Assembly: GCA_051867855.1 (NCBI GenBank)
Contig: JBJDZF010000378.1
Location: 1-40,403 of the forward strand
Origin: Eubacteriales bacterium
Lineage (GTDB): Bacteria; Bacillota; Clostridia; Oscillospirales; CAG-272
Length of the DNA: 40,403 bases
Direction of reading: 5' to 3'
Shown here: positions 2,686-38,160 of the stretch, in pieces
Layout: every line of letters starts with the position of its first letter
Numbering within the stretch: position 1 is the stretch's first letter
Translations under genes and position numbers: made by a program
Notes under the pieces: generated by a model
The model's database searches: none
What the model saw: only the letters and a program-made list of their open reading frames with translations
What the model was told of the DNA's origin: nothing

Positions 2686-2720
2686 ATAAGCAAAAACAGA
2701 CCGGATAAGCCGGTCTGTTT
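2686..2720 (-). terminator. Intrinsic terminator/attenuator just after the capsid gene
   Basis: 11-bp perfect stem AAACAGACCGG/CCGGTCTGTTT (2694-2704 / 2710-2720), 5-nt loop. On the minus strand it is followed by UUUUUGCUU. Confidence 0.5.
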
Positions 2721-2724
2721 CCGT

Positions 2725-3729: not shown

Positions 3730-3743
3730 GCTGTCTTACCTCC

Positions 3744-4139: not shown

Positions 4140-4171
4140 TTTAATACACTCCTTTTAGTTTTCCGGAAGCG

Positions 4172-5197: not shown

Positions 5198-5271
5198 TTA
5201 GTCCTCCGGATTTTTACGCTGTTCGCTGCGAATCGTTTTTAACGTATTTTTGATGTAATCATTTTACGGAA

Positions 5272-5406
5272 TCACTTTCCGTTCTTTGTGCGAAGGTCTT
5301 CTCCCTTTTTAACGGCTCCGTTCTTTGCGGTCTTCGTCTTAAAAAGCGCTTCTACCTTCTGGGTTCCGCCGTTGCCGATCTTGCCAGCATAGCTTTCCTT
5401 TTTCAC
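5272..5406 (-). CDS. Small basic Lys/Gly-rich protein (44 aa), below the ORF-track cutoff
   Basis: GTG 5406 preceded by a GGGGGTGA SD. Own translation (M)KKESYAGKIGNGGTQKVEALFKTKTAKNGAVKKGEDLRTKNGK, stop TGA 5272-5274. Fills the portal-scaffold gap. Confidence 0.3.
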   Translation of the reverse strand: MKKESYAGKIGNGGTQKVEALFKTKTAKNGAVKKGEDLRTKNGK

Positions 5407-5411
5407 TTCTT

Positions 5412-7541: not shown

Positions 7542-9046
7542 TTTTCTTTTAAGTATCGTTTAGTATCGCTATTCGCCGCGTTGTAATCGTCCCACATATC
7601 ATCCGTCCATGCCGTTTTCGCTTTTTCTGGCTCCTTGTACACGGATTTTTGCTGTCCCTCAATTGCAAGCGCAATTGCAAGCGCCATGATGCAGTCGTCA
7701 TGTGCCCCCTCCTGCGCTTCAGGCCGGAATTCTTCGTTGCGTACAAAAGTAAGCATTTCTTCGAGCGTAGTTCTGTCGTTGATCGTATCGTCGTTTGCTT
7801 TAACATGATTGATAAGGCGGGCTATTATTGTGTTGCGTGTGAGCTTATCCGTTAGAAATCCGTACTGGTCGACTGTTTTGTGTGTATATCGATCAATCGA
7901 CTGCCGCACATACAGCTTCGGATATCCGAGCCGCGCAAGCTCGTTTACCGGATATGTGGAAAAATTTATCTCAATGCCGATGAGCGCGGTATTGTAGTAT
8001 TTCCCTAGGCAGTACATCTGATTGCAGTACTCTTTTTCCCCGGTTGTCATCTTGAGGACTGCGCATTGTTCTTTTGTTTTGTTATTAAGCACCTGGCCTA
8101 CAAATCGGTCCGATCCGTTTCCGGCAATGTCTCCGCCAATGACAAATGGTACATTTGCATCCGGCTCTTTGTAAATATAGATAAGCTGGTTTCTCTCATC
8201 CTCAATCCATGTGATATCATAGATACAGTCTGATCCCTCTCGATACGCAAAATATCCGGCTTTTACCGGATTCGGTATCTTTTGGAGCCTCTCGGAAACG
8301 ATAACCGCAGGAAAAACGGTTTTTCCGGTTACGCCCCATTCGCCAAGGCAGTATACCGTGTAGTAATATTCATCGGTTTCCCGGAACGCTTCCAGTGTCT
8401 GGATCGCCTCATCCGGAAGGAATGGATTATCCTTATAATTGCTTCGGCTCGTCGTTGCGCGCCGGTCTTGCTTATCGTAAAAACGCGCTTTAAGCCAATG
8501 TGTTACCGATACCGGATTAAACGTCAAAATGATTTGCTTATAGTACGGTGTTTCATCTCTTAGTCTGATATCGAGCTGGTTAAAATCGTATTCGGTAATT
8601 TCAGATGCTTCCTCTATCCAGATCATTGTGATTCCGCGGATTGATTTCAGTTTTTCGACATTATCAAGGCCGGAAAAAACAATTTCCGAACCGTTTTGTA
8701 AAACGATTCGCATAGGAGATGATGTCATGCGCTTGATTTTATCGGGATAGTATGTTTCTGCCTGCTCTTTGAGCTGGGAAAAGCATGATAAGCTGATGCT
8801 TTTCTCTGTTTTTCGCACGACTAAAACACGGTGTCCTTTTTCTGTCGCGCAGCGCTCAAGCAATTTTCTTCCTGCGAAAACGGATTTACCGGAGCCGCCG
8901 CCGCCCATCAGGACAAGATAACGGGATTGATTAAAAAGCAGATCGCGAAAAACCGGTACATTTGTATCACACCACGATTTCCACCAGGATACAAGCTCTT
9001 TTTCCGTCTCTTTTTTGATTTTTTTCGATTTATAGGCAGTTTTCAT
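7520..9046 (-). CDS. terL: Terminase large subunit (PBSX-like family)
   Basis: 508 aa. Walker A in YLVLMGGGGSGKS, Walker B-like MIWIEEASE, C-terminal nuclease-type acidic motifs. ATGA overlap with terS. Confidence 0.9.
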   Translation of the reverse strand: MKTAYKSKKIKKETEKELVSWWKSWCDTNVPVFRDLLFNQSRYLVLMGGGGSGKSVFAGRKLLERCATEKGHRVLVVRKTEKSISLSCFSQLKEQAETYYPDKIKRMTSSPMRIVLQNGSEIVFSGLDNVEKLKSIRGITMIWIEEASEITEYDFNQLDIRLRDETPYYKQIILTFNPVSVTHWLKARFYDKQDRRATTSRSNYKDNPFLPDEAIQTLEAFRETDEYYYTVYCLGEWGVTGKTVFPAVIVSERLQKIPNPVKAGYFAYREGSDCIYDITWIEDERNQLIYIYKEPDANVPFVIGGDIAGNGSDRFVGQVLNNKTKEQCAVLKMTTGEKEYCNQMYCLGKYYNTALIGIEINFSTYPVNELARLGYPKLYVRQSIDRYTHKTVDQYGFLTDKLTRNTIIARLINHVKANDDTINDRTTLEEMLTFVRNEEFRPEAQEGAHDDCIMALAIALAIEGQQKSVYKEPEKAKTAWTDDMWDDYNAANSDTKRYLKEKWGTPKT

Positions 9047-9621
9047 TTTTCCCCGCCATTTTGTAAATCTTCCGCATCTTCCGTTCCCGATGACGCGTCA
9101 TCAGCTCCGGACACATCCATCGCGCCGTAAGCTTTTGCTATTTCTTTAAGCAGCTCCAGTTTTTCAAGCGCAGGAATGTTTCCCGTTTCCGTCCGGCTTT
9201 CGTTTCCGGAATCGTTTCTTAATTTTTCTCGATCCGAGTACCCGAAATTATTTTCGAGGCTGAAAATGATCCCCTTGCAGTCTCTCCCCATCAGCACAAG
9301 TTGCTGTGTAAGGTACGATTCCACGCGCATACGCGCTATCTCGATCACATCCTTGTATCCCTCTCGCTGTGCGTACATGCTCCACGTCTGCCGGCTGATA
9401 CCGAGATAGCACTGCAGCGATGTGATCGACGGCGGAACGGCATATTTGATGATCGGTATCGGTTTTCCGTCGTTTCCGATGATCTCATCCCCCGGCACAT
9501 ATTTCCCTGATACCCATGTATCTGGTCGGCGTGCGTTTTCTGTGTATGTGATGCCGTCAAAATATCGATCTACTGCGTCAGAAAAATCCTTGCTTGATCG
9601 ATATTTTATGAATCTTCCCAC
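9043..9621 (-). CDS. terS: Terminase small subunit
   Basis: 192 aa, GTG start (the track shows M) with GAGAGGGGG upstream. PPSITSLQCYLGISRQTWSMY HTH and GIIFSLENNFGYSD motif are typical of Firmicutes terS. Lies immediately upstream of terL. Confidence 0.75.
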   Translation of the reverse strand: MGRFIKYRSSKDFSDAVDRYFDGITYTENARRPDTWVSGKYVPGDEIIGNDGKPIPIIKYAVPPSITSLQCYLGISRQTWSMYAQREGYKDVIEIARMRVESYLTQQLVLMGRDCKGIIFSLENNFGYSDREKLRNDSGNESRTETGNIPALEKLELLKEIAKAYGAMDVSGADDASSGTEDAEDLQNGGEK

Positions 9622-20382: not shown

Positions 20383-20604
20383 TCAGAGGAACACCTTACG
20401 CGGATTTTCAACGTCCAGAAGATCGCAGATTCCGAATACCTCATGCAGCTTGAACGGATAATACCCGTGCATCTTCAGCGAAAGGGTTGACCGCGGAATG
20501 CCCAGATGTTCCGCCGCTTCCGTGAAGCTGATCTTCTTTTTCTTCATCAGTGTCTCGACAATGCACTGATCCGGATAATTCGGTTTCTTATACGTGTTTT
20601 TCAT
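20383..20604 (-). CDS. Cro-like small HTH regulator
   Basis: Start at ATG 20604 (AAGAGG SD). KKISFTEAAEHLGIPRSTLSLKMHG helix-turn-helix. Second gene of the leftward early operon. Confidence 0.7.
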   Translation of the reverse strand: MKNTYKKPNYPDQCIVETLMKKKKISFTEAAEHLGIPRSTLSLKMHGYYPFKLHEVFGICDLLDVENPRKVFL

Positions 20605-20631
20605 GCCCATACCTCTTTTAATTAAGTTTTT

Positions 20632-20784
20632 CCGCGCCCGCGCGGAGACGGCGACAGTTTCCGGTTCCATGCGCGGCATGTCGTCCGCTCCGGACTTATC
20701 GCCCTCTCTCCGAGGATTCCGCTATGGGAAACCTTTGAAAGGATATCGAGGCGTCTTGTTTTCACCGCCTCCGCGCGGGCACGG
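20632..20784. repeat. 22-bp GC-rich inverted repeat pair flanking a ~110-bp leader segment
   Basis: ccgcgcccgcgcggagacggcg (20632-20653) versus the reverse complement of 20763-20784 (ccgtgcccgcgcggaggcggtg): 19 of 22 identical. Both contain the 10-mer TCCGCGCGGG, also present at 12335-12344. Confidence 0.7.
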
Positions 20785-20791: not shown

Positions 20792-20956
20792 TCAGTTTTT
20801 CGAATCGGAATCCGCTTCCGTCTTTTTCAACTTTCCTCCGTCAAGCAGACCGTTTCCGTAAGTCAGAAGCAGAATCCGCTGTACATCAGTCATTTGCATA
20901 ACAGATGTAATGATGCTTGTAATGATTTCTGTTTCGCTTTTTTCAAGTACTTTCAT
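20792..20956 (-). CDS. Hypothetical 54-aa protein, first ORF of the leftward early operon (below the track cutoff)
   Basis: Own translation MKVLEKSETEIITSIITSVMQMTDVQRILLLTYGNGLLDGGKLKKTEADSDSKN. GGCGGTGA SD. Confidence 0.45.
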   Translation of the reverse strand: MKVLEKSETEIITSIITSVMQMTDVQRILLLTYGNGLLDGGKLKKTEADSDSKN

Positions 20957-21002
20957 TGTTTCACCGCCTTTTTATTTTTCGTTATAATCATTCATAATTT
21001 TG

Positions 21003-21031
21003 TTGACACACTGTTTTTTGCGTGCTATAAT
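21003..21031 (+). promoter_or_regulatory. Perfect consensus promoter P2
   Basis: TTGACA (21003-21008), 17 nt, TGcTATAAT (21023-21031). Confidence 0.85.
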
Positions 21032-21049
21032 AAATTATGGGTGATAATT

Positions 21050-21493
21050 ATGAAAACCAAAATTTTTGTTTGCATTTTGATTTTTGTTGGAATTTGTACA
21101 TTTGCTGTTATTGCGCCAAACTATAAAGATGTACAGAATACTGGTGCTGTTGTTTCTGTTGATTCAAAACCGATTGCAATAAATCATGAAACCGAAGAAA
21201 ATCATGATTCCGAATTGCAGTTGGTTTCTATTACAGATCCGATATCTCCCGGAAAAGTTGCTGCTTTGATATTAAAAGGGAAACCGAATACGGATTATTA
21301 CCTTGTTGTGATCTATCAAAAAGAATCAAAGGCAAGTGGTCTCGGATTGGCCACATCAGATAGCACCGGTATGGTTAAATGGTATTGGAAGGTTGGAACA
21401 AGAACATATACAGGTGAAAAAGATATAAAGGTTTACTATGGTAATAGCAAAAAAGGAAAACCAATTTTCGAAATGAAATTCACTGTAAAATGA
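21050..21493 (+). CDS. Secreted or membrane-anchored small protein (147 aa), moron-like
   Basis: The real start is the internal Met at 21050, downstream of P2. The 299-aa track ORF spans the promoter. MKTKIFVCILIFVGICTFAVIAP signal/anchor, beta-rich C-terminal domain. AT-rich. Confidence 0.7.
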   Translation: MKTKIFVCILIFVGICTFAVIAPNYKDVQNTGAVVSVDSKPIAINHETEENHDSELQLVSITDPISPGKVAALILKGKPNTDYYLVVIYQKESKASGLGLATSDSTGMVKWYWKVGTRTYTGEKDIKVYYGNSKKGKPIFEMKFTVK

Positions 21494-21551
21494 TTTCAAG
21501 TTTAGTTTTGCAAGCACATTTTACGAATTTCTTATGTACTTGTTCGTACTA

Positions 21552-21580
21552 ATTATATCACATTAATTGTACTATGTCAA
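21552..21580 (-). promoter_or_regulatory. Perfect consensus leftward promoter, back-to-back with the repressor promoter
   Basis: Minus strand reads TTGACA (21575-21580), 17 nt, TGaTATAAT (21552-21560). Confidence 0.8.
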
Positions 21581-21625
21581 CCACTTTTATAAATTTATTT
21601 TTTATTTTTTGTACTCACAATTCCA

Positions 21626-21654
21626 TTGACAGCCGAAGATTTTTATGATATAAT
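21626..21654 (+). promoter_or_regulatory. Perfect consensus promoter P3 of the XRE repressor gene
   Basis: TTGACA (21626-21631), 17 nt, TGaTATAAT (21646-21654). Confidence 0.85.
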
Positions 21655-21680
21655 ATGTTTTGAAGTAAGGAGGTGGTTAT

Positions 21681-22076
21681 ATGGGCATCGAAGAAAGGAT
21701 CAAGAAAGTTCGTAAAGATAACGGATTGAATCAAACTGAATTCGGGAAGTCTCTCGGGGTAAGCAGAAATGTCATCAAAACATACGAGCTTTCTCTTGTC
21801 AAGCCGTCTGAAATTTTCATCGATCATCTTTGCGTTGTATACGGTATAAATCCGGAATGGCTCGAAACCGGACAAGGAAGCATGCACGCCGATATATCGC
21901 GCGAAGAACAGATTGCGCGATTCGTAGGAGAAGCGATGAAGGAGGAAGGATCGTTCAAACATGCATTGATAACCCTTTTATCCGAGCTGGATGAAGACGG
22001 ATGGAAGAAGCTGGACGAGGCCGCACATGCTCTGCTCGATGCGCAGGAGCAGATCAGGAAAAGCAGCGATCCTTAA
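21681..22076 (+). CDS. XRE-family (CI-like) repressor, no peptidase domain
   Basis: 131 aa. IKKVRKDNGLNQTEFGKSLGVSRNVIKTYE...GINPEWLETGQG is a canonical HTH_3 with the WL.TG tail. AAGGAGG SD. Confidence 0.85.
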   Translation: MGIEERIKKVRKDNGLNQTEFGKSLGVSRNVIKTYELSLVKPSEIFIDHLCVVYGINPEWLETGQGSMHADISREEQIARFVGEAMKEEGSFKHALITLLSELDEDGWKKLDEAAHALLDAQEQIRKSSDP

Positions 22077-22089: not shown

Positions 22090-22134
22090 AAAAAAAAAGA
22101 AACGATGGAATAAAAACCATCGTTTCTTTTTTTG
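22090..22134. terminator. Strong bidirectional terminator
   Basis: 12-bp perfect stem AAGAAACGATGG/CCATCGTTTCTT (22097-22108 / 22117-22128), with an A-run before and a T-run after. Confidence 0.8.
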
Positions 22135-22142: not shown

Positions 22143-22274
22143 CTATTGCCATGCTTTCAGAATCGTATGAATCCGAACAATCTCTGTATAGCTTGATCTT
22201 CGGATCATGTCCATGATTTCAATCAGCATCTGCAATCGTTTCATTTCTTCCCCCTCATTCTTTTTTCCGCCCAT
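22143..22274 (-). CDS. 43-aa peptide with its own perfect promoter (below the track cutoff)
   Basis: AGGAGGA SD 7 nt before ATG 22274. Own translation MGGKKNEGEEMKRLQMLIEIMDMIRRSSYTEIVRIHTILKAWQ, stop TAG 22143-22145. Confidence 0.6.
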   Translation of the reverse strand: MGGKKNEGEEMKRLQMLIEIMDMIRRSSYTEIVRIHTILKAWQ

Positions 22275-22319
22275 CTGTTTTTCCTCCTATGTTTAAGAAC
22301 GTTTGTTCTTTTTTCTAAT

Positions 22320-22348
22320 ATTATACCATAGGAAAACGGTTTTGTCAA
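22320..22348 (-). promoter_or_regulatory. Perfect consensus promoter P4
   Basis: Minus strand reads TTGACA (22343-22348), 17 nt, TGgTATAAT (22320-22328). The -35 overlaps the stop of the upstream ORF. Confidence 0.85.
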
Positions 22349-22809
22349 CGCATATTTTGCTTTAAGTTTCTGATTCTGTTTTCAAGCTCCTGATTTTCTT
22401 CTTCAAGTACAGCGATTTCGATTTCTTTTTCTTTGCATCTTTTCTTCAGTTCGAATATGTATGTACTGACGATTTTTGCGTTTTCAATGCCGCTGCTTTG
22501 GATTTCAAGGTCGATGCTGCAGTGATCTTCCTGAAGCTTCTTGATTTCGTTTTCCTTCATGATTTCCCTGACACGGTCATGTACGGAATTTATCGTCCGA
22601 TTCATTTCTATTCCGTGTCTTTCGATCATGGATTTCTTTTCCTTTTCGTGCTCTTTTGCTTCTCTGATTTTCTCAAAATATAAATCTTCGTTTTCCTTTT
22701 TCAGTTTCAGCACCTCTTCTCTTTTATCGAAATAAAGCACGAAGAAAACGACAGCTGTTATAATGAGTATAATGATTACCGAATACATGAATCCAACCAA
22801 CTCTGACAT
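22345..22809 (-). CDS. N-terminally anchored coiled-coil membrane protein (154 aa)
   Basis: Start at ATG 22809 (AAAGGAG SD). TM helix FMYSVIIILIITAVVFFVLYF, then a Lys/Glu-rich heptad-like sequence. Very AT-rich. Confidence 0.7.
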   Translation of the reverse strand: MSELVGFMYSVIIILIITAVVFFVLYFDKREEVLKLKKENEDLYFEKIREAKEHEKEKKSMIERHGIEMNRTINSVHDRVREIMKENEIKKLQEDHCSIDLEIQSSGIENAKIVSTYIFELKKRCKEKEIEIAVLEEENQELENRIRNLKQNMR

Positions 22810-22830
22810 GATATCACTCCTTTCACTACT

Positions 22831-22859
22831 ATTATACATCATTTTTTATTGTTTTTCAA
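22831..22859 (-). promoter_or_regulatory. Near-consensus promoter
   Basis: Minus strand reads TTGAAA (22854-22859), 17 nt, TATAAT (22831-22836). Confidence 0.7.
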
Positions 22860-22867
22860 TTATTCTG

Positions 22868-22896
22868 TTGATTTTTGTTCCGGATTATGATATAAT
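22868..22896 (+). promoter_or_regulatory. Near-consensus promoter, back-to-back with 22831-22859
   Basis: TTGATT (22868-22873), 17 nt, TGaTATAAT (22888-22896). Confidence 0.75.
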
Positions 22897-22920
22897 TCAA
22901 TATAAAAGAGGTGTATTGAA

Positions 22921-23430
22921 ATGATTGAAGAAATGGATTTTTCCGATTTTGTTATTACGATCTGTTATGCTTGTCAGGTAGCCTCATTGATCTGTATCTA
23001 TAGATACTACGATTACAGAGAAATCAATGAATATTATCATATGAAAGCAAGAAATAAGGTAACGCACAGCTTCTTGAAAAACCTTTTTGCGATTTATTTC
23101 ATCCAACACCTGATAGGATTTATATTATATTTCATTGCTTATTGGTATATTTTCACCGATTTCATTATCATGATACCGCTTGGCTTAATGTGCTTTACAA
23201 TTTCCGTATTGCTTCGCTTGATGAACAAAAAAAAGAATTTCGGTTTTGGATTATCTCTCATTTTATTTTTTATCTTATTTTTGCCTATGTCATATCTCTC
23301 GCTTCGGTATTGCGATAAGTTCACGGATTATTGTACAGAATCCTTTTATTCATGTTTTTGTTTATATATTTTACCAATGTATGGGGTTTTATTTATCGAT
23401 TATAATACATATCTTGATAAAACCGAATAA
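22921..23430 (+). CDS. Polytopic membrane protein (about 5 TM helices, 169 aa)
   Basis: AAGAGGTG SD. Aromatic/Cys-rich hydrophobic segments. Very AT-rich. No recognisable family. Confidence 0.75.
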   Translation: MIEEMDFSDFVITICYACQVASLICIYRYYDYREINEYYHMKARNKVTHSFLKNLFAIYFIQHLIGFILYFIAYWYIFTDFIIMIPLGLMCFTISVLLRLMNKKKNFGFGLSLILFFILFLPMSYLSLRYCDKFTDYCTESFYSCFCLYILPMYGVLFIDYNTYLDKTE

Positions 23431-23645: not shown

Positions 23646-24310
23646 TTTCCGAAGATCCACATCTTCCGTTTCTTTTTTTCCGGCTCCTTGGTTTCCGCGG
23701 CTTCTATCCGCATGATATCGTTTGCGTGTAAGGCCTGTGCGCCCTTCGTGCTGTCCATTGCATCTGACAGCGCCTGCGTCAGGTTTGCATTCTGTGATAG
23801 CAATGATTTGATCTGCTCGTCTTTTTCCTCAATCTGCCGTTTCAGAAACGCGCACGTTCCGCGAAGCTCTTCCTCCGAAACCGACAGGATCCGTATTGTT
23901 TCGGTTGCAGCCGAAAGTTTCAGCTTCATCGCTTCGGTTTCACGCTCCATTTCCGCCATGAAACCTGAAATTCCTCGGTTTCCGCTGACAACTTTTTCAC
24001 CTTCGGTTTCACCTGTTTTTTCTTCTTCTGACAACCCGGAAAAAGTTTCCCCCGTTCCGGTTTCAGAATTGGCCCCGTCATATCCGGTTTTTTCGGTTTC
24101 ATCTATGGTTTCAGTGGAAACCGGTTTCACCTCTTTTTTTCTCTTTTTTTCATCGTTTTCCGAAACCAATATTTTCTCCGCTTCTTCTGTCAGGTAGATG
24201 GTCTTATCCTCCGCCGTGAAAAAGGTTTCACGCGGAAGTTTCAGCACGCGCTTATAAAGCGCCTGTCTGGATATCCCCATTTCACCCGCAAGCTGCCGTA
24301 TCGTTTTCAT
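23642..24310 (-). CDS. HTH protein translationally coupled to rep (plasmid replication-associated, DUF536-like arrangement)
   Basis: 222 aa. MKTIRQLAGEMGISRQALYKRVLKLP HTH, acidic Thr/Glu-rich linker, C-terminal coiled coil. ATGA overlap with rep. Confidence 0.55.
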   Translation of the reverse strand: MKTIRQLAGEMGISRQALYKRVLKLPRETFFTAEDKTIYLTEEAEKILVSENDEKKRKKEVKPVSTETIDETEKTGYDGANSETGTGETFSGLSEEEKTGETEGEKVVSGNRGISGFMAEMERETEAMKLKLSAATETIRILSVSEEELRGTCAFLKRQIEEKDEQIKSLLSQNANLTQALSDAMDSTKGAQALHANDIMRIEAAETKEPEKKKRKMWIFGK

Positions 24311-25368
24311 CTTTTCCCGCCTCCGCTCCCGTCAGATGCAAGCATCTTGCAGAAATACCTGTACCGGCTTGTATGTACATCCCTCGTCTGCATCTCATCG
24401 TATTTCCGCTTGAGATAATGATATCGGCATATGTCCGGATCGTCAAACCGTGTTCCGACCGTATCGTCAGGAACTGCTTTCACAAGGTCATAGAGATACC
24501 GCATTTCGCTTTCATCAAACTCTCTGTCGCAGGCGTCCGCTAAAAACTCAAGCGTTTCGTCCTCGTAGGTATGCGCGACCTCCTCGAATTCCGTGATATC
24601 GACGCATCCGTCCCCGTCCGTTTTCTGCATATCCATATACGCACGCAGAGACAGCGGATCGGAAAATGCATCGTTTTTCATGATCCGGAATACGACCGCC
24701 GTGACGCGTCCTCCGCGCCCGTGCTTTTCAAGCGTATAGGTATACCTGATATCCGTGTTTTCCGCAAGCGCCGTCTGGCATGCGTCCAATACGCACGCTT
24801 TGAACCGGTCGAATCGGTCATAGGTTCCCGGCTCGATTCCGAGCAGAGACCGTATTTCCGGCAGCGTGAAGCGCCGCTCACCAAGTTTTTCATACTGCTT
24901 CAGAATTTCATACATGCGCAGCTGGTTTTTCGATTCAAGCCGGAGTGCGTTCCACAGCTCGTAGCGGAAATATTCTCGTTTGAACCGGAACAGAAGCGGC
25001 ATAGCGTCCTCATGCGCGCGGAATGTGATATACCAGCCGTCCGGCCGATGCTCGCACCGGCAGCGGTCGAACAGATGGAACTGCTCATACCCGCCGTCGC
25101 TTGTATCAACCGTTATAAGGCGTGAGACAAGCCTTGCGGTTGTTTCCTTAAGCTGTGCTAAATTGATCTTTTTCAGCTCCATAATGCGCTGAAAATCGGC
25201 AAGCGCGAATTCCTGCGACCGCGTTTCCTCATCCATGATATTGATTTTTGACAGGTAAATCGAGAAGAAGCGAAGCTCCTGCAGCGTCATCTTCGTTTCT
25301 CTGACTTCGTTCAGCACATTTCGCTTGGTCACAATCGCGTGTTCGCGTATTGTTTTCATAAAGCCCAT
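24307..25368 (-). CDS. rep: Rep_3-family (RepB-type) iteron-binding theta replication initiator
   Basis: IVTKRNVLNEVRETKMTLQELRFFSIYLSKI, YELWNALRLESKNQLRMYEILKQY, FTLPEIRSLLGI..YDRFDRFKACVLDACQTALAENTDIRYTY and GRGGRVTAVVFRI follow the Rep_3 pattern. Start is ATG 25368 or 25359, because the track start 25395 lies inside the promoter. Confidence 0.8.
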   Translation of the reverse strand: MGFMKTIREHAIVTKRNVLNEVRETKMTLQELRFFSIYLSKINIMDEETRSQEFALADFQRIMELKKINLAQLKETTARLVSRLITVDTSDGGYEQFHLFDRCRCEHRPDGWYITFRAHEDAMPLLFRFKREYFRYELWNALRLESKNQLRMYEILKQYEKLGERRFTLPEIRSLLGIEPGTYDRFDRFKACVLDACQTALAENTDIRYTYTLEKHGRGGRVTAVVFRIMKNDAFSDPLSLRAYMDMQKTDGDGCVDITEFEEVAHTYEDETLEFLADACDREFDESEMRYLYDLVKAVPDDTVGTRFDDPDICRYHYLKRKYDEMQTRDVHTSRYRYFCKMLASDGSGGGKR

Positions 25369-25383
25369 CACCTCACCTCTCTG

Positions 25384-25412
25384 ATTATACCACATTTCAA
25401 CACCTTTGTCAA
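25384..25412 (-). promoter_or_regulatory. Perfect consensus rep promoter
   Basis: Minus strand reads TTGACA (25407-25412), 17 nt, TGgTATAAT (25384-25392). Lies between the iterons and rep. Confidence 0.85.
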
Positions 25413-27213: not shown

Positions 27214-27528
27214 TTATTTGTAATCTGTCAGAATCGGAAGAACCTCACACCCCTCCCATGCCTGCTGCAGCTTCTTGATTCCTCTTGCCTTATGTTTTGC
27301 GACATAATCCCGTCTGTATCCGAGCGCCTCCGCCGCTTCCTCCTCCGTCATACCATCAATGATCACGCATCTGATGCATGTTTCCTCGGACTTTGACAGA
27401 GACACATATGTAAACGCGAAATCAAGCACGCGTTTATACGGCGTTTTCAGTGCCCGCACGACCGTTTCACGGGGCAGCACGCTGTCGCCTCCTCCCGTAT
27501 TTCCGTATCCGTTCGTTTTGTACGGCAA
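27214..27528 (-). CDS. Sigma-70 region-4-like small regulator
   Basis: 104 aa. EETCIRCVIIDGMTEEEAAEALGYRRDYVAKHKARGIKKLQQAW is region-4/LuxR-type. The start is uncertain because the track ORF overlaps the upstream gene by 62 nt. Confidence 0.5.
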   Translation of the reverse strand: MPYKTNGYGNTGGGDSVLPRETVVRALKTPYKRVLDFAFTYVSLSKSEETCIRCVIIDGMTEEEAAEALGYRRDYVAKHKARGIKKLQQAWEGCEVLPILTDYK

Positions 27529-27790
27529 TCACCGCGTTATCGACATGACAGGTGTATGCCGTCATTTCCTCCGCGGCAATTCCGCTTTCCCTCTGTTCCG
27601 CATCGTCCGGATGCGGATTTCTTGCATATGCATATCCCTGCAGCAATGTCAGGATCATATACAGGACGCACAGACAGACGGAAACACGTCTCCACATCCT
27701 GTATAGTCCGTTCAATCGCTTGATTTCCTTCGTTGCCAGAGCAAGCGCACGCCCCTCCGGCGACTGTACTTGTACTGTCGTTTTTTTCAT
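27467..27790 (-). CDS. Single-pass membrane protein (107 aa)
   Basis: Start at ATG 27790, 2 nt after the giant-gene stop. TM helix VSVCLCVLYMILTLL. Confidence 0.5.
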   Translation of the reverse strand: MKKTTVQVQSPEGRALALATKEIKRLNGLYRMWRRVSVCLCVLYMILTLLQGYAYARNPHPDDAEQRESGIAAEEMTAYTCHVDNAVIAVQNERIRKYGRRRQRAAP

Positions 27791-27792
27791 AT

Positions 27793-30700
27793 TCAGATTC
27801 CTATCTTTTTCAGTCCTATGCTTCCTATCCCGATGCTCGGAACGGAGAAGGAACTTTTCGATATCTTCTGCGCCTTGTATGGATTTGACGACTGACTGCC
27901 GCCCGTTGCGATCCATAGCGCGCTTGCCTGTCCCTTTCCGAGCAGCAGACGATTGATTGCGCTTTCCCGCTCCTCGTTTGATATATAGCCGTCCTGGTTT
28001 GTATCGGCGTTATTGAGCACCCATAGATAGATATCTACGTCAACACCTGCGTCGATTGCTGTATGATACCTCTCATATGCGCCGTCCGTAAGAACGGTTT
28101 TTATGGCGGTATCCAGTGTCTTCCCGGAAAGCGTCGTTTCCCATATCGCGGCGATCTTATCCGCGCTCGATTTCGCTCCCATCAGCGCATCGGTCACGGC
28201 AACGGCTGATTGTGCGTCAAGCCCGTTTGCGATGAGTTTCTTATACGTTTTCGGGTCGACTGTAAAACCTGTCGCAAACGGGAACGTATCTCCGATCTGC
28301 ATGATTCTGTCATCGCTGTATCCCATCTCCGAAAGCCATGCAAGGAACCGCGTTGACCGCTGCGCCGCCGTAATGCTGTCGTCTGCGTTCAGTCTAGCGT
28401 TTTCCGATCTGATTTTCAGAAATTCCTTGTAAGTCATGCCGTAACCGAGTATCGCGTTCACTTTGTCATCGTCGGTATAACCGATGAAGTTTCCGTCGTC
28501 ATCTGTTTCCTTGGTTGCGATCATGCCCTCGTAGACAGCCCGCATTGCGTCTGCATCCATATCGGTTGCAAGCAACAGATCTATTTTTTCAAAATTCCTG
28601 TCCGCCTCCCGTATATTCCGGACGGTATTGACCGCCTCCGCATAATCAGCTCCAGCCTCGACAGCGCTGTCGACTGTATTTTTCTGTCTGTCCGTAGCGA
28701 CGTATTCATAATAAAGCTCTGCTTTTTGCTCATCATCAAGCTCCGTTAATCCGTCTATGTACGCGGCCTGTGCAATGGCTAGCGTTTCGTTTTCTCTTTT
28801 CTCCACATCCGAAATACCGACCGCGATCTCGTATGCCGTTGACGGCTTAACTCCCGCATCCGTCAGTGCCTGATAGGCTTCCGTCTGCTTTTTTTTCAGC
28901 GTATCGAAATTCTGATTGACCCATTTCTGCTGTGAAAGCGTTCCGGACTTACCGAACAGCAGCGCACGGACGGTATCTGCTCCCGTCACGGTGTATTTCA
29001 GCTGTCCCTGCTTATAACCGTCCGTATAGTCTCCCGCCTGAAGAATAGAAAGCACGCCGTTCAGTGTCTTTCGTAACTGATTGCCTCCGGTCACAGTAAC
29101 GGACATAATGTCAAGCGCCTGCTGCATCAGATGGTAGAAAAGCTGCGCTTCCTCGTCCTTCTGTGCCGCCTCGATCTGGGCAATCATCTCCGGATCAGTC
29201 TCTTTCCTTTTATCCTTGGCAAGAGAATCGATTGCCGAAATATCGCCTCCTGCTTTTATCGCGTTAGAAACGCTCGGAAGGTTCACGGGAAGTCTTGAAT
29301 CTACGTCAGCTCCGAATGCACGTGCTGCGGCTAAAATGGAAGAACCGAACGGTACATCGTCGATAAATTCCGATACGGTTTTCCCATACGATTTTGCGCC
29401 TGCTACGATCGCTTCCAGAAGTGTCATGTCGTTTTCCTCGTCCTCATCACGGTCTCGGACGAACTTCTTGATGACGTTTACTAAGATTCCGTTCAGAACG
29501 CCGGATGCTCCCGTTATGAAATTGCCGAACAGAAGGCCTAAGATATCGAACATGGAGACCGTTCCGAGACCGAGCGCCGAAAAAATGTTGTTTGCAATCC
29601 ATGCGGCTGCCGCCTGACTTGCCGCAAACTTTGCAATCGTTTCCGCGGCCGCTTTCTTCCCTTTCGTCTGTTCGATCCGCTTCCACTCCTCCGGAAGCGT
29701 TTTCGAGATATTCTCCCACTGTGCAAGCGTTTCACGCTGGAACAGCGTCATAAGCTGTATGATAACGTTTTTCGACCGGAAAACAAGAGGTGATGCGCCG
29801 CGCAGTCTGGATGCAAGAATCGATCGTGCCTTGCTGTCTGCATACCGCATTGCTTCCGCTTCGTTCATTCCGTTATCGATTCCCTGCTGAAAGAATGAAT
29901 AGACAGCGAATTTTGACATGAAGATATCCGTCTGTTCCCATGTTTTTTCCGCAAGGTCGACCGCTATGTCTGCGGCTTTTACAATCCGCTCTGACCCTGA
30001 CGCCGCAATGTCCTTTTCGTAAGTTGTGCGCTGCATTTTCGTTTTCTCTGCAAGAAACGTCGACTTTTCAGAAATCCGATACCGCTGCTCCAGATCGTTG
30101 TTCGGATTGAATACAAGCATAGGCGCCGAAAACGCATGCTTTCCCGTTTCCGCTATGACATTCGGAATCTGGGAAAGCTGCCGGAGCGAGGATGCAACAT
30201 TGAACGTCATCATGGTACGGTTCGACCACCTGATCAGTGCGCCTGCCTTTCGCAGTGTGGTTCTCCCGATTGTGTTTTCCTGATCGCGTGACAGAATCTG
30301 CTTTCCGGCGAGATCGTCGGTGTAATTCTTCAGCCATGTGACAAGAGGACCGTAATCCTGTGATGCTTCCCTTAACTGTCTGTCCTTTTCGTTAATGGAT
30401 ATTGCATCCTCTCCCGTATCCGTCAGATCATCCAGCATATCCGCGCGTCTGTCCTGTGATGCTTTATCGAATTTGTCTCGGATATAGCTTTCAAGAGTTC
30501 GCAGCTTCATGATATCGTCGATATGGTATATGGCTTCGTTTGCCGCGTACAGATACCGCTCCATATTGGCGGCAGCATCATATACGGTTTCCGTTCCCAT
30601 TCTGCGCTGTGCAAAGGAAAGCCATTTTCTAAACGGTCTGAAATCAGCCGTCAAACCCGCAATGGACGCCGGAAGGTCAGTCACTTCGTCAAATCCTGCC

Positions 30701-33700
30701 GTTTTCATGATCTGTTCCCATGCGTTCATCGCTTTTTCCGGCTGCCTGTGCGGCATATAGTTTTTCCGGAAACGGATTTCGCCGCGTCCGTGAATGACGG
30801 ACACCTCATTGATTGCGTCATAGAGATCGTTGAGCATGTCTCTGTAGTCCTTCGCCGCCGCTTCCGCCTTCCGAATGACCGCATCGACGGAATAATTCTT
30901 TTTTTTCTTTGCGTTCAGAACGGCATTTGAAGCAATGGATTGCAGCGTGGATCTAAGTGAAACATATGCCTCCTCGTCATTTGCTTTCCTGATCCGTTCT
31001 GCTTTTGCGATTTTTCTGTAATCCTTTGCCTGCTCGTCGAGTGTTTTCCTCTCGAATTCCTTTTCCCGAATCGCACTTTCCAGAGCATTTTTCCTCTGTT
31101 TAGCGGATTCGCGCCACACTTCGTAATATTCGTTTCCTTCAGGATCGTATTTCGGACTTCCGTTGTGCTGCTCCTGATAGGATTTTCTGGTTGTTTTATT
31201 CAGTTCCTTGGTTGTTTCTTCAAGGGATTTCCGCATCCGAGCAATTTCACGGTCAACGCGTTTAACCGCTTCCTCGCTTCTTTTTGCGCGCAATTCGTCA
31301 AGCAGCTCTGTTCCGTCCGATTTCGAAACGGCGGAAATAATCTCCTCTACCGCTCCTTCCTCCCCTCTCATAAGGGCGGTAAGCATATCCCGTGTAACAA
31401 CAGGCTTTTCTTCTCCGTTATCCAAAGCATATTCCGCGACGATCTGCGCAAGTGCGCTTTCGGTTTTCGTCAGCTTATGCTTCATGATGCGTTCCATCTG
31501 TCTGTTAGTCTGCCGTCTCGCGGATGCGGAGTTATCTATGACCGGTTTGATAAAGGTATCGGTCAGCTCCCGTGCAAGCTCCGTATCGCCGAAAAACCGT
31601 GTCATGACGTTTTCAGGATTGGAAAGATTCAGTTCAAGCGTTTTCGATCCCTTTGTCTTTATGGAATCCCATTTGAAATCCGAAAATATCTGATCGAGAT
31701 TTGTTTTAATCGTGTTCAAGACGGACTTATTGCTGCCTCTGATTCCCGCCATCATCATTGTGTCAAGATCGCGGTGCATCTTTGCGAGCATTGATATGTG
31801 GTTATAAAATTCGCTTTTCTGGTCTGTTTCTTCGAGTTTGTATTTCCCTCTTGCAATTGCTAATGCCTTCGTATCGATTTCCTCGGGTATACCGAACTGC
31901 TTGATATACTGATTGATCCGTTTCCGGATATCTTCCGCTGCGTGATTCGCGTCTATGATTCCCTTTGCATCAAAGTAATTATCCGCGACGGCGCCTGATA
32001 TCCGATATCCGAGCTTTCTCATGGCAGTCTTGGCATTAAGAGCTTCCCGTCTGCGCATTTCGTAATTCTGTGTAAGAATCCGTTTCGCTTCCTCCGGTGT
32101 CTTTCCTTCCGCGATCAGCGCGGAATAAACGCCGGCTTCCTCTGCATCGGTTGGACCCGGTATTCCGGTTTCGGAACCGTTTCCCGTTTCGGTTTCAAAA
32201 AGACGCGGATTCTCCCATTCGGAAAGCGCGTTGTCAAGAGCGTTCTGCCTCTCCGGGTCAGCTGTTTTGTTCCCTCCCTCCTTTTTCATTGTCTCCATCA
32301 CGGATCCGGTTACGTCCCGTCTCAACCCGAACTCGTCTTTGATTCGGTTGACGGCAGCCCCTTTGATTGCGTTGAAAGCGCGCTGCTTGTCCCCGTATTC
32401 CTTATAAAGGCTGTAGTACATATCCCGTTCGGTTTCCGTTGCGTTTTTCGGAAGCTCGCCAGTTACGGATGCATAATCCTCGTTATTCCTGATATCGTCC
32501 GAAACCGTCTCGTCCATGTTTTCCGGAATCCCGGCATTTTCCTTGTACTCCTCTGAAAACGCCTGCATTTCCGCCTGTCGCTTGACGTTCCGTTTTTCCC
32601 GTTCTGCCGATTTCTGCTGCTCCCGATATCCTGCCATCGTTTTCGGTTTGGTTCTTTTTACATTCGGAATAGTGTTTTCAGCACCTGTGTCGTCAACCTC
32701 TCCTTTTGTTTCCATCATAGGTACAACATCCGACAATCTCCGTCTTTCCTGTTTTTCGATTACGTTTCCGTTTTCGTCAACCTCGATTTCGTCAAGCGGG
32801 TTTTTCTCCTTCTCCTCACGCACATCCTCATCAATCGAATATTGCGCATCCTCTCTGTATGCAAACTGCTTTTCTCCGAGCGCCTTTGCGTAAAGGTTCC
32901 GCGCATCTGTGATGAATTTCCGTTCCTTTGCCGCCTTGTTTCCGAGCTTCGCAAGAATGCTATCCAAAAAAGATCGGATTTTCTGACCGATGGATCTGTT
33001 TTCGTGCACAAGGGATGTGATGCTCTGCTCGTCCGTGAGCAGATTTTTCGAAACATATTCGGCTGTTACCTCCGCCCGTATCTGTGCGGCTGTTCTCCCG
33101 TATATTTTTCCGTCTGCATACAGATTCTGGTTGCGCCGCATGATCGTTTCATATGTACCGTCTGCTTTCATTTTCCGGAGTATCATGGTTTCGAGTTGGC
33201 TGTATTCCTCCGAATCACCGATTGCATGTGTCAGCTCATGGGATAGAATCTGCGCGGTTGCCGTATCTGACTTAGCGTTTACATAAATTACTCCGTCCCT
33301 GTAATACCCGTTTTCCATGATGCCCTCTCCGCCCGGTGCCGTATAGAACCGAACCGGAATCCCGATTGCATCAGAAATGTTTTTCGCTGTCTGTATGGAA
33401 TCCTCGTTTGCGCCGTTCTCGCGCCCTGTGCGCTCCGTTTCCGTGTCGATCTGGTTTGTTTTCGTTTTTTTGTTTTCCGCGCGCTGTGCGGTCTCAGTGA
33501 CGTCGGTTTCGCCTCTCTTATACATCTCCGCGCGTTCCCGGATCGTATCGAGCAGCTCCGCGCTTCTGTTTCTGATGTCCTCCGTTGTTGCAGTCTTTGC
33601 GTTAATAGTCGTACCGTCCCCAAGCTTTTCCGAAACGCGGTTCAGTGTTTCCGCCGCCGCTCGGATGTCGGCCGGATTCATATTTTCGGCAAACGCGTTG

Positions 33701-35151
33701 ATTGCATAAACGTTATCGCTTACACCCTTTGTCGCGGGCGATACCGCATCCGCAACCGCCACGACGGTTCCGAATGCACCCATCAGTCCACCGACGAGAG
33801 CGCCCGACACGCCGGATCGTATCATTTCCGACGTATCGAAAATGCCGTCGTCACCGAACCATTTTTTATCCGGCTCGAATGTCAGCTTATCGACGATGCC
33901 GGAAAGCGGTACGTTGACGACCTCCTCGGCGCCCTCTTCGGCCATATTGAACGCCGCTTTCATAAGCGTCTTGACAAGCGTCATCGCCGTCGAGCCTGTC
34001 CTTGAATCCAGAACGCCTGCAACCGACGCAATGTCCGTAAAACCGCCTAGATTTTCCGTGAACCCTTCTACGAATGCGTTTCCGGCCGAATTGATGAAAT
34101 TTTCAAGGATTCGTTTTTCGTCTCCGTAATCCTTCTGGTTTTCGAAAAACGTATTCCCGAATGTGTTTCCCATGAGAATCGCCTCGTGCGGAAGGCTTTT
34201 TACCGCGTTGACAACGCCGTCCGCAATCGACTTCGAGACTGTTTTCAGATTCAGATTCCCGGCCTTGTATGCCGCCTGTATGCCTTTCTGCGCGGTGTCG
34301 ACAAGCGTTTTCGGCTCTCCGAGCGGAAGCGCCTTCATTATCACCATATTCGGAATGTTCTGCCCGATCTGAAACGCGGCTTCTCCGAGCAGGAATTTTT
34401 CTGCTGTATTCAGATCGTTTTCGTTCGCCCACGCTTCCGCGTTCTGTCTCTCAAAGGTCGGAAGCTCAAGCTTTTTGTATGCCCGTACCGTTTCCTGTGG
34501 TACGCCTGCCGATTCGGCTATTTTCATGACGGCGCGGTCTTCATCGTAGGATGCGGACAGAAAAAGTGTATTCCTCTCGTTTTCGTTTTCGGACAGATAC
34601 CGCTCAATCCGGTTGATCTCCTCTCCGCGTTTACCTCCCGTTCCGATATCCGCAAGTGCGTTTTCGATACCGTATGCGTAAGATGTTGCGCCGGACAGGA
34701 AACCCGCCCCGGCATTCTGCATAAAATAGAGCCCTCTGTTTTTCTCCGTCTGATTGATTTCCGGAAGCGGTGCCTTTGACGTCGGAACAGACTGCCCCGG
34801 AGCGATATCCGGTATGTTTCCCTCTCGCTCTGTATACGCCTTGACAGCGGAACGCATCTGCTGCTGTTCCGCCTGTTTCCGTATATCCGATATCCGTCTG
34901 TCGGTTATGTTTTTTCCGATTTCGCCGTCCTGTTTGTACATGCCGCCATGTCCGCTTTCGTTTCCTGTTGATAAAGCGGATCTGTTTTTCTCCGCAATCA
35001 GATCGGACGCATCGCTTTGTAAAAGCCCCATGCTCTCAAGGCGTTTTCTGATCGCTTCGTTTTCCTCAAACGTCGGAAGAACGACAGGCGTTACTCTATT
35101 TTCGCTTTCTTTTTTTTCGTACAGTCCGATATCTGATAGTTTGAGTGCCAT
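27793..35151 (-). CDS. Giant (2452 aa) polyvalent / ejection- or tape-measure-like virion protein with a zincin motif
   Basis: Uninterrupted ORF, AGGAG SD. HELTH at 33226-33240 in the context YRDGVIYVNAKSDTATAQILSHELTHAIG. Gly-rich hydrophobic helix clusters (for example aa ~1835-1897, nt 29461-29649). Canonical EF-hand loop DTNQDGYISNEE at 27970-28005. Confidence 0.8.
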   Translation of the reverse strand: MALKLSDIGLYEKKESENRVTPVVLPTFEENEAIRKRLESMGLLQSDASDLIAEKNRSALSTGNESGHGGMYKQDGEIGKNITDRRISDIRKQAEQQQMRSAVKAYTEREGNIPDIAPGQSVPTSKAPLPEINQTEKNRGLYFMQNAGAGFLSGATSYAYGIENALADIGTGGKRGEEINRIERYLSENENERNTLFLSASYDEDRAVMKIAESAGVPQETVRAYKKLELPTFERQNAEAWANENDLNTAEKFLLGEAAFQIGQNIPNMVIMKALPLGEPKTLVDTAQKGIQAAYKAGNLNLKTVSKSIADGVVNAVKSLPHEAILMGNTFGNTFFENQKDYGDEKRILENFINSAGNAFVEGFTENLGGFTDIASVAGVLDSRTGSTAMTLVKTLMKAAFNMAEEGAEEVVNVPLSGIVDKLTFEPDKKWFGDDGIFDTSEMIRSGVSGALVGGLMGAFGTVVAVADAVSPATKGVSDNVYAINAFAENMNPADIRAAAETLNRVSEKLGDGTTINAKTATTEDIRNRSAELLDTIRERAEMYKRGETDVTETAQRAENKKTKTNQIDTETERTGRENGANEDSIQTAKNISDAIGIPVRFYTAPGGEGIMENGYYRDGVIYVNAKSDTATAQILSHELTHAIGDSEEYSQLETMILRKMKADGTYETIMRRNQNLYADGKIYGRTAAQIRAEVTAEYVSKNLLTDEQSITSLVHENRSIGQKIRSFLDSILAKLGNKAAKERKFITDARNLYAKALGEKQFAYREDAQYSIDEDVREEKEKNPLDEIEVDENGNVIEKQERRRLSDVVPMMETKGEVDDTGAENTIPNVKRTKPKTMAGYREQQKSAEREKRNVKRQAEMQAFSEEYKENAGIPENMDETVSDDIRNNEDYASVTGELPKNATETERDMYYSLYKEYGDKQRAFNAIKGAAVNRIKDEFGLRRDVTGSVMETMKKEGGNKTADPERQNALDNALSEWENPRLFETETGNGSETGIPGPTDAEEAGVYSALIAEGKTPEEAKRILTQNYEMRRREALNAKTAMRKLGYRISGAVADNYFDAKGIIDANHAAEDIRKRINQYIKQFGIPEEIDTKALAIARGKYKLEETDQKSEFYNHISMLAKMHRDLDTMMMAGIRGSNKSVLNTIKTNLDQIFSDFKWDSIKTKGSKTLELNLSNPENVMTRFFGDTELARELTDTFIKPVIDNSASARRQTNRQMERIMKHKLTKTESALAQIVAEYALDNGEEKPVVTRDMLTALMRGEEGAVEEIISAVSKSDGTELLDELRAKRSEEAVKRVDREIARMRKSLEETTKELNKTTRKSYQEQHNGSPKYDPEGNEYYEVWRESAKQRKNALESAIREKEFERKTLDEQAKDYRKIAKAERIRKANDEEAYVSLRSTLQSIASNAVLNAKKKKNYSVDAVIRKAEAAAKDYRDMLNDLYDAINEVSVIHGRGEIRFRKNYMPHRQPEKAMNAWEQIMKTAGFDEVTDLPASIAGLTADFRPFRKWLSFAQRRMGTETVYDAAANMERYLYAANEAIYHIDDIMKLRTLESYIRDKFDKASQDRRADMLDDLTDTGEDAISINEKDRQLREASQDYGPLVTWLKNYTDDLAGKQILSRDQENTIGRTTLRKAGALIRWSNRTMMTFNVASSLRQLSQIPNVIAETGKHAFSAPMLVFNPNNDLEQRYRISEKSTFLAEKTKMQRTTYEKDIAASGSERIVKAADIAVDLAEKTWEQTDIFMSKFAVYSFFQQGIDNGMNEAEAMRYADSKARSILASRLRGASPLVFRSKNVIIQLMTLFQRETLAQWENISKTLPEEWKRIEQTKGKKAAAETIAKFAASQAAAAWIANNIFSALGLGTVSMFDILGLLFGNFITGASGVLNGILVNVIKKFVRDRDEDEENDMTLLEAIVAGAKSYGKTVSEFIDDVPFGSSILAAARAFGADVDSRLPVNLPSVSNAIKAGGDISAIDSLAKDKRKETDPEMIAQIEAAQKDEEAQLFYHLMQQALDIMSVTVTGGNQLRKTLNGVLSILQAGDYTDGYKQGQLKYTVTGADTVRALLFGKSGTLSQQKWVNQNFDTLKKKQTEAYQALTDAGVKPSTAYEIAVGISDVEKRENETLAIAQAAYIDGLTELDDEQKAELYYEYVATDRQKNTVDSAVEAGADYAEAVNTVRNIREADRNFEKIDLLLATDMDADAMRAVYEGMIATKETDDDGNFIGYTDDDKVNAILGYGMTYKEFLKIRSENARLNADDSITAAQRSTRFLAWLSEMGYSDDRIMQIGDTFPFATGFTVDPKTYKKLIANGLDAQSAVAVTDALMGAKSSADKIAAIWETTLSGKTLDTAIKTVLTDGAYERYHTAIDAGVDVDIYLWVLNNADTNQDGYISNEERESAINRLLLGKGQASALWIATGGSQSSNPYKAQKISKSSFSVPSIGIGSIGLKKIGI

Positions 35152-35164
35152 ATGATTCTCCTAA

Positions 35165-37967: not shown

Positions 37968-37970
37968 ATC

Positions 37971-38159
37971 CTATCCCTCCTTGTCCGCTGAAATGCGCTT
38001 GATTTCATATCCGATCTGCTCCTTCAGCCTGACGATATAATCGCGCATTTCCTTGTTCTGCTGATACAGTGCGGATATTTTCTGTTCCTCTGTCATGTCA
38101 GTGAGATCGGGAATGGACGGAAGTCCTTCATTCGTCCGAAGCAAATCCGTATATGCCAT
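37971..38159 (-). CDS. Hypothetical 62-aa protein
   Basis: Start moved to ATG 38159, 1 nt after the lysin stop. Confidence 0.5.
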   Translation of the reverse strand: MAYTDLLRTNEGLPSIPDLTDMTEEQKISALYQQNKEMRDYIVRLKEQIGYEIKRISADKEG

Positions 38160-38160
38160 A

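Follow-up and report, generated by a model that had tools for sequence, protein, structure and literature searches.

A probable temperate-phage immunity switch with an exchanged module and a displaced early promoter on a contig from gut Clostridia

The stretch of DNA analysed here, referred to as the window, is the whole of a 40,403-bp contig (C378, JBJDZF010000378.1) that was binned in a fragmented 2.7-Mb metagenome-assembled genome (MAG) of 445 contigs. The window is phage DNA. At 21535-21655 a pair of back-to-back promoters, accompanied by four short [T/C]GTACT sites, separates a leftward early operon, whose first open reading frame (ORF) encodes 54 amino acids (aa) and is termed ORF54, from a rightward gene encoding a CI-like repressor of the XRE family. 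A gene for a 147-aa protein, read towards the switch from its own promoter (P2), lies between this promoter pair and ORF54 (Table 1). Comparison with related phages suggests that the region is probably the immunity switch of a temperate phage, in which an exchanged module has displaced the early promoter, the TGTACT sites would mediate repression and induction would be linked to LexA. The switch is of an ordinary kind; its layout is unusual.

Table 1. Positions of the genes and predicted signals of the window
Feature	Position	Strand	Remarks
Small and large terminase, portal and major head genes	1-9621	-	family searches
First early ORF (ORF54), 54 aa	20792-20956	-	87-91% identical in heteroimmune relatives
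Immunity-type-specific, low-GC exchanged segment	20977-21811		835 bp; blastn breakpoints and GC step
Weak promoter-like site, GTGTCA-17-TATAAC	20981-21009	-	9/12; lacks TG and the conserved last T of the -10 box
P2, promoter of the 147-aa gene	21003-21031	+	12/12 with TG; convergent with the leftward early promoter
147-aa protein (moron)	21050-21493	+	N-terminal signal/anchor helix, beta-rich C-terminal domain
Site 1, TGTACT	21535-21540	+	at +6 to +11 of the predicted leftward transcript; TGTAGT in L066
Site 2, CGTACT	21545-21550	+	over the start predicted for the leftward transcript; L066 has CACACC and a 2-bp deletion
Site 3, TGTACT	21568-21573	+	in the spacer of the leftward promoter, beside its -35 box; kept in L066
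Site 4, TGTACT	21610-21615	+	10 bp upstream of the rightward -35 box; kept in L001 and L066
Leftward (early/lytic) promoter	21552-21580	-	TTGACA-N17-TATAAT, TG at -15/-14, 12/12; predicted start ~21545
Rightward repressor promoter, P3	21626-21654	+	TTGACA-N17-TATAAT, TG at -15/-14, 12/12
CI-like XRE repressor, 131 aa	21681-22076	+	variable N-terminal helix-turn-helix, conserved C-terminal domain
Bidirectional intrinsic terminator	22092-22133		17-bp perfect stem, A/T-run flanks; z -6.7 and -5.1 by strand
43-aa ORF, candidate small antirepressor	22143-22274	-	strong Shine-Dalgarno sequence; conserved across heteroimmune relatives
AGAAC-N4-GTTCT palindrome, Gram-positive LexA-box form	22296-22309		between the promoter and Shine-Dalgarno sequence of the 43-aa ORF
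Perfect promoter of the 43-aa ORF	22320-22348	-
Rep_3 plasmid-type initiator	24307-25395
Endolysin, internal virion protein and 2452-aa protein	27793-39297

An earlier, sequence-only reading of the window had proposed two perfect back-to-back promoters with their -35 boxes 45 bp apart, and all of these elements were found, both promoters being of the extended -10 kind, with one -35 hexamer ending at 21580 and the other starting at 21626. It had also assigned the rightward promoter, P3, to the CI-like XRE gene, an assignment that agrees with the AAGGAGG at 21667-21673, the ATG at 21681 and the protein family matches described below. P3 is perfect also in L001 and L066, two relatives of the same immunity type, and a perfect leftward promoter stands at the equivalent place in every relative. 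Perfect promoters are common in the host organism and are no rarity: the window contains seven, against none in 100 shuffles, and the host assembly contains 132 in 2.7 Mb, the phage contig being ~3.6-fold enriched. The likening of the 45-bp gap to that of the lambda PRM/PR pair was not upheld. In this phage family the gap is usually 34 bp (33 bp in L026, 42 bp in Clostridium phage CWou-2020a and 44 bp in L025 and L066), and in lambda the starts of PRM and PR are only ~82 bp apart.

The 131-aa XRE protein matches HTH_3 (PF01381) over residues 7-61 with 31.5 bits against a cut-off of 23, and a PHROG search returned phage repressor families. Only helix-turn-helix (HTH) families of Pfam matched the protein, with no Peptidase_S24 self-cleavage domain; its C-terminal half forms a conserved domain that was assigned to no family. 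Alignment of four immunity types revealed a mosaic, in which four different N-terminal domains are joined to a nearly invariant C-terminal half. More distant homologues include annotated cI-like repressors of Clostridioides phages and proteins encoded on 40-kb Clostridium plasmids. Searching the region against a phage collection with blastn gave no match, and protein-pattern scans with the XRE protein and ORF54 detected no relatives in viral, genome or metagenome contigs. Among 301 genomes of the family and 401 of the order, repressors were at most 49% identical in the HTH domain and no prophage of the same type was present.

Relatives were found through XRE homologues at 56-60% identity and homologues of ORF54, yielding ten related contigs (L002-L009, L023 and L024). 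Wherever a contig covers the region, ~183-197 bp with two perfect back-to-back promoters separate the divergent XRE gene and small ORF. ORF54 stands directly opposite the XRE gene in all ten close relatives, and in none of them does another gene part it from the switch. The divergence of an XRE gene from a first early ORF through two perfect promoters was seen in at least 14 loci, comprising L002-L009 and L023 together with the family prophages L012, L013, L015, L025 and L026, and phage CWou-2020a has the same switch design. Several of these relatives are clearly temperate: L008 encodes a large serine recombinase, L004 has a tyrosine integrase gene beside the repressor gene, and L023 and L066 carry Rep_3. 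The recurrence of this layout in every relative found, temperate phages included, bears out the proposal of an immunity switch and lends strong comparative support to 21535-21655 as the predicted region of lysis-lysogeny control.

No Cro-type partner that co-varies with the repressor type was found. Both ORF54 and a 98-aa HTH protein (20383-20679) lie outside the exchanged segment and are conserved across heteroimmune types, the latter being nearly the same in phages of different immunity types. ORF54 had no Pfam or PHROG match.

A separate 22-bp element, TTGTGAATATATTATATCACAA, was observed in L002 (3245-3266), with inverted TGTGA and TCACA arms 10 bp apart lying over the leftward -10 box and start. 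Equivalents are present in L003, L005-L009, L023 and L004, so that the element is conserved in three other immunity types; the TGTGA-N10-TCACA palindrome is missing from the immunity type of the window and from the window as a whole.

The boundaries of the exchanged segment were located by blastn against L023, which has the same gene order at ~80% identity. Homology is lost at 20976 and regained at 21812, the right breakpoint falling inside the XRE gene after the HTH domain, and the GC content is 32.9% within 20977-21811 compared with 50.7% and 49.1% in the flanks. Within the segment lie the 147-aa gene with its promoter P2, the two promoters of the switch and the part of the XRE gene that encodes the DNA-binding domain. 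It had been suggested that the P2 gene cassette was inserted into the early leader. The foreign origin of the cassette is supported by the breakpoints, the low GC content and its absence from ten relatives; a simple insertion of the P2 cassette is not, as an entire 835-bp module has been exchanged.

The left junction provides a record of how this may have occurred. The sequence 20954-21049 aligns to the intergenic region of the L005/L006 type with a gap of ~100 bp, which removes the leftward promoter of that type, while P2 matches the repressor promoter of L005/L006, sharing the spacer CACTGTTTTTTG, the left flank and even the Shine-Dalgarno and start region. P2 is, as judged from this match, a relic of the repressor promoter of another immunity type. 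We infer that an L005-type ancestor acquired a foreign immunity module, which would correspond to 20977-21811 and would derive from an immunity type unlike that of the nearest relatives. The ancestral leftward promoter beside the first early ORF, then lacking its cognate repressor, would have been deleted, and the ancestral repressor promoter would have survived as P2, which now appears to drive the 147-aa gene.

The unit was found a second time in L066, a 21-kb contig from another sample that was reached through the third member of the 90% cluster of the XRE protein. The L066 repressor is identical at 121 of 131 positions and has the same recognition helix, and the contig has perfect leftward and rightward promoters, the 43-aa ORF, a Rep_3 gene and a gene for the 2452-aa protein. 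It also holds the 3' 288 nt of the 147-aa gene, at 88% identity and with 19 synonymous against 11 non-synonymous codon changes. As L066 carries it, the unit of gene, switch and repressor is real and recurrent; assembly does not explain the layout, nor is it confined to one phage. A chimera of two co-occurring heteroimmune phages, produced during metagenome assembly, is therefore very improbable, for even though the contig comes from a MAG in many pieces and the segment joins sequences of two immunity types, L066 was assembled independently and has the 147-aa gene, switch, XRE gene, 43-aa ORF and Rep_3 in the same order, and the left junction carries a specific deletion with no shared repeat.

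The 147-aa protein gave no Pfam or PHROG match and no word-level homologue. Its C-terminal domain of ~85 aa matched 887 representative proteins with HMMER, which are usually secreted and of varied architecture. An AF2 model consisted of a hydrophobic N-terminal helix and strands with a pLDDT of 57, too poor for a fold search. A function in lysogenic conversion or exclusion is plausible but unsupported.

The sequence-only reading had placed TGTACT at 21535, 21568 and 21610 and CGTACT at 21545, all of which were confirmed on one strand. Four GTACT copies on the same strand within 81 bp form the sole such cluster in the 2.7-Mb assembly, and when the 181-bp control region was shuffled 5000 times with its dinucleotides preserved, a 5-mer with all four bases reached four copies twice (P ~0.0004). 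GTACT is missing from the switches of other immunity types. Site 4 is kept in both relatives of the same type and site 3 in the one that covers that part, and these two sites lie inside the longest conserved blocks of the region. Avoidance or enrichment of GTAC for reasons of restriction was considered and rejected, as GTAC is as dense in the phage as in the host. Likewise rejected was a LexA box at the leftward promoter, for which the candidate, CGAACAAGTAC, does not fit GAAC-N4-GTTC.

The arrangement of the sites is informative when the other switches are compared. In thirteen related switches a type-specific 8-mer occurs as three direct repeats (O1-O3), whose positions are fixed and whose spacings are 32 and 41 bp. 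To the immediate right of the repeats stand, in turn, TTGTGA, a -35-like hexamer at the leftward +1, then the leftward -35 box (TGTCAA) and the rightward -35 box (TTGACA). Sites 1 and 3 of the window fall on the O1 and O2 places to within 1 bp, and the distance from site 3 to site 4 is 42 bp, compared with 41 bp from O2 to O3. Sites 1, 3 and 4 are thus spaced by 33/42 bp in the window. In L066 the spacing is 31/41 bp and the three sites read TGTAGT, TGTACT and TGTACT. Site 4 lies 10 bp further from the rightward -35 box than its counterparts in the relatives, a shift that accounts for the extra 11 bp of the switch gap. Sites 1, 3 and 4 may therefore be regarded as candidate counterparts of the three type-specific repeats, with site 2 as a possible extra copy of the window only. 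One design is common to the family, as seen in the intergenic regions of L012, L015, L025, L026 and the L002 and L005 types: a pair of consensus promoters, usually with a 34-bp gap, and three direct copies of a type-specific 8-mer.

Further sequences bearing these arrangements were sought by pattern. Site 4 with the -35 box had no match in viral contigs, and in metagenomes gave a single chance match within an ocean coding sequence. With TTGACATAGTACA-N7-TGnTATAAT, a pattern for the leftward promoter, 25 loci were obtained. They are unrelated promoters, each with a single AGTAC, and none is a relative, a number close to chance expectation given the number of consensus promoters. Within the window, two adjacent copies of the motif occur at only one other place, as a tandem TGTACTTGTACT at 27765-27776 where an ORF (27467-27916) overlaps the 3' end of the 2452-aa gene.

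The proposal that all four sites act as operators was sustained in part, sites 3 and 4 being conserved in the relatives of the same type while site 1 is degenerate and site 2 is gone in L066. The chances that sites 1, 3 and 4 are the operators of the repressor appear roughly even on these sequence comparisons, and the version with four sites is less probable than that. The most likely course of repression would be that the XRE protein shuts the leftward promoter through non-palindromic TGTACT repeats.

The principal alternative accepts the region as a switch and holds that the GTACT repeats are not operators of the XRE protein. They would instead bind another factor (an early regulator, a protein like Apl or a recombination directionality factor, or a host protein) or be leftovers with no function, and the repressor would recognise something else in the region. 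We consider this unlikely, while noting that several observations are in its favour. The sites are direct repeats and not palindromes, which is unusual for XRE dimers; all four are on one strand and their flanks have no dyad symmetry beyond the GTAC core. The repeats of the relatives overlap the -35 hexamers and the sites of the window lie beside them or 10 bp away. Direct repeats can be the target of such a factor, as Apl of phage 186 is reported to bind direct repeats that lie between pR and pL at a spacing of one helical turn (PMC7498355). A different target is also available in L001, in which a perfect 15-bp palindrome, CATTGACAGTCAATG (41-55), spans the -35 box and spacer of the rightward promoter. 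Against this alternative, that palindrome is not found in the window or in L066, which share the immunity type of L001. The early-side proteins do not co-vary with immunity type and the GTACT motif is specific to this type of XRE protein, its positions and spacing mirroring those of the repeats that co-vary with repressor type in the 13 other switches.

Transcription in the early direction was considered next to the position of P2. The predicted leftward start at ~21545 lies 589 nt from the ATG of the ORF at 20956, in agreement with the ~590 nt of antisense transcription that had been proposed, and 508 nt from the predicted start of P2 (~21038). Neither strand was found to carry an intrinsic terminator in the stretch from the 147-aa gene to the switch, the hairpins there being not significant (z-scores -1.3 and -2.1), so that the two predicted promoters face each other across 508 nt with no such signal between them. 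The first good terminator is that at 22092-22133, which is common to the repressor gene and the 43-aa ORF; searches of Rfam gave sub-threshold matches only, on this hairpin. As there is no terminator and the only alternative is a weak promoter, an early start at the perfect leftward promoter and read-through from P2 are predicted. Early transcripts would start near 21545, cross the 147-aa gene in antisense for ~590 nt, meet P2 head-on and reach the ORF at 20956, and transcripts from P2 would probably read through the switch into the repressor gene.

An improbable alternative is that the leftward promoter no longer serves the early operon. Its transcript would then be an antisense RNA controlling the 147-aa gene, or would be dissipated by collision with P2; jointly with this, the early genes would be transcribed from the weak site at 21009-20981, or the phage would be lytically defective and maintained as a plasmid only. 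The 589-nt leader is untranslated as well as antisense and runs into a perfect promoter, the weak GTGTCA-17-TATAAC site, the only alternative leftward start for the operon, is 18 nt upstream of ORF54, and the Rep_3 replicon would make plasmid maintenance possible. Against this, every relative uses a perfect leftward promoter for its early operon, the weak site has neither TG nor the key -7 T, and the antisense path contains no terminator. The structural, lysis and packaging genes of the window are intact, and in L066, a second phage with intact phage genes, the gene-switch unit is under purifying selection.

Several points nevertheless weigh against a displaced early promoter repressed through TGTACT sites. 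In L066 site 2 is missing and site 1 is altered despite an identical recognition helix, and, whereas the repeats of the relatives are centred on -35 boxes, the rightward promoter is not overlapped by any GTACT site. This immunity type is known from only three sequences and the background identity among them is ~85-90%, for which reasons two conserved hexamers are weak evidence. As L066 ends inside the 147-aa gene, the convergent arrangement with P2 has been seen only once. Rho-dependent termination might occur, and a 590-nt antisense leader facing a perfect promoter might leave the phage crippled.

The route of induction is suggested by the genes beyond the repressor. The 43-aa ORF is convergent with the repressor gene, and it is preceded by the LexA-type box, whose position is shared by the window and nine relatives and whose central N4 varies. 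At the sequence level a LexA box thus stands before a small gene, beside a repressor with no cleavage domain. The absence of that domain, the invariance of the C-terminal half and the LexA-type box suggest a small antirepressor controlled by LexA. Both the 43-aa protein and the C-terminal domain are conserved across immunity types, which is a correlation, and induction would probably proceed by action of the LexA-controlled 43-aa protein on this domain of the repressor. One host lexA-like gene (C385) carries CGAACATTTGTTCC after its own -10 box, and recA was not found in the host assembly, which is incomplete. The host assembly (G000) was also observed to contain at least five full-length LexA-like genes, on contigs C207, C385, C407, C61 and C20. 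In several of them the promoter is closely followed by a different palindrome, such as GAAACAAAATGTTTC or AGACAAATTGTCT, and these genes may be prophage repressors or paralogous SOS regulators.

The window as a whole is best explained as a temperate phage-plasmid of gut Clostridia. It additionally carries a PAPS-reductase-like gene and an HUH Rep, and no integrase was detected among the ORFs that were scanned. ORFs run off both ends of the contig (1-3 and 40104-40403), the frames are mismatched if the ends are simply abutted and the ends share no repeat of up to 200 bp; the contig is probably a slightly incomplete circle. A pair of AT-rich membrane-protein genes (22345-23430), located between the 43-aa ORF and a 222-aa gene, is shared by the window and L023 and is missing from L066 (1107-1406 compared), and so behaves as another optional cassette.

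The predicted switch shares features with several known systems. It resembles the lambda CI, OR and PRM-PR arrangement in the divergence of a repressor gene and a lytic operon, in a repressor with an N-terminal HTH and a C-terminal domain, and in immunity modules that are exchangeable. The position of P2 recalls the well-established position of P_RE, on the lytic side and directed antisense through the lytic leader into the repressor gene. In contrast to lambda, there is no S24 domain here, direct repeats make up the candidate operators, none of the Cro-like proteins changes with immunity type, the promoters are consensus-perfect with -35 boxes 45 bp apart, and P2 appears constitutive and not dependent on CII. 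In phage 186 the convergent promoters overlap by only tens of bp and are themselves the switch, whereas here a protein gene lies within an overlap of 508 nt, and the antirepressor function of the 43-aa protein is a prediction. The likenesses to 186 (pR/pL and Tum) and to Gifsy phages are a lytic promoter that faces a promoter reading toward the repressor gene, a non-cleavable repressor and a small gene behind a LexA-type box (PMC7708051, PMC6593788, PMC3121763). Small antirepressors controlled by LexA are known from these phages, Tum of 186 being one example (PMC3121763).

The geometry of the candidate operators can be compared with that of coliphage P2, whose C protein, an HTH repressor, binds non-palindromic direct repeats that span the -10 box of the early promoter and lie 22 bp apart from centre to centre (PMC2995052). 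At C/Pe of that phage the repeats are thus about two helical turns apart (PMC2995052, PMC1904268); sites 2 and 3 of the window flank the leftward -10 box at a distance of 23 bp. Heteroimmune relatives of coliphage P2 also differ in the sequence and spacing of their repeats, and convergent promoters are part of the arrangement (PMC2995052, PMC1904268). The comparison covers operator geometry; unlike in coliphage P2, the promoters of this switch stand back to back and the promoter convergent with the early one is a relic at a distance of 508 nt, and site 2 is not conserved in L066. Interference between face-to-face promoters has been documented for coliphage P2 and for 186 (PMC6593788, PMC7708051). 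Finally, in the CI-MOR switches of TP901-1 and phi13, P_R and P_L likewise diverge, the lytic side begins with a small gene, and the CI protein has an N-terminal HTH and an oligomerising C-terminal domain and does not undergo autocleavage (PMC7250872, PMC8516035, PMC11149083). The window differs in that no relation of ORF54 to MOR was detectable and ORF54 does not vary together with the N-terminal domain of the repressor. The operators of TP901-1 are palindromic.

A more elaborate reading, which we put forward tentatively and regard as rather doubtful, is that the region forms a portable three-promoter circuit and/or represents a shared and undescribed family design, in which consensus promoters with a 34-bp gap and three type-specific direct repeats over -35-like hexamers go with a swappable HTH domain, and a LexA-controlled 43-aa antirepressor targets the constant C-terminal domain of the repressor. 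In such a circuit a constitutive P2 would express a surface protein, read into the repressor gene and collide with the early promoter over 508 nt, and this interference, with the pair of sense and antisense RNAs, would take the place of Cro as the second arm of bistability.

The analysis leaves the current understanding of phage switches in place. It provides a testable map of a lysogeny switch for an uncultured family of phages and phage-plasmids from gut Clostridia, comprising promoters, candidate operators, repressor domains and a probable SOS-linked antirepressor. The locus also appears to record the swap of an immunity module, after which the old repressor promoter would have been reused for a putative lysogenic-conversion gene and the old lytic promoter deleted. 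If the convergent arrangement works as proposed, it would exemplify long-range transcriptional interference that is naturally part of a lysis-lysogeny decision.

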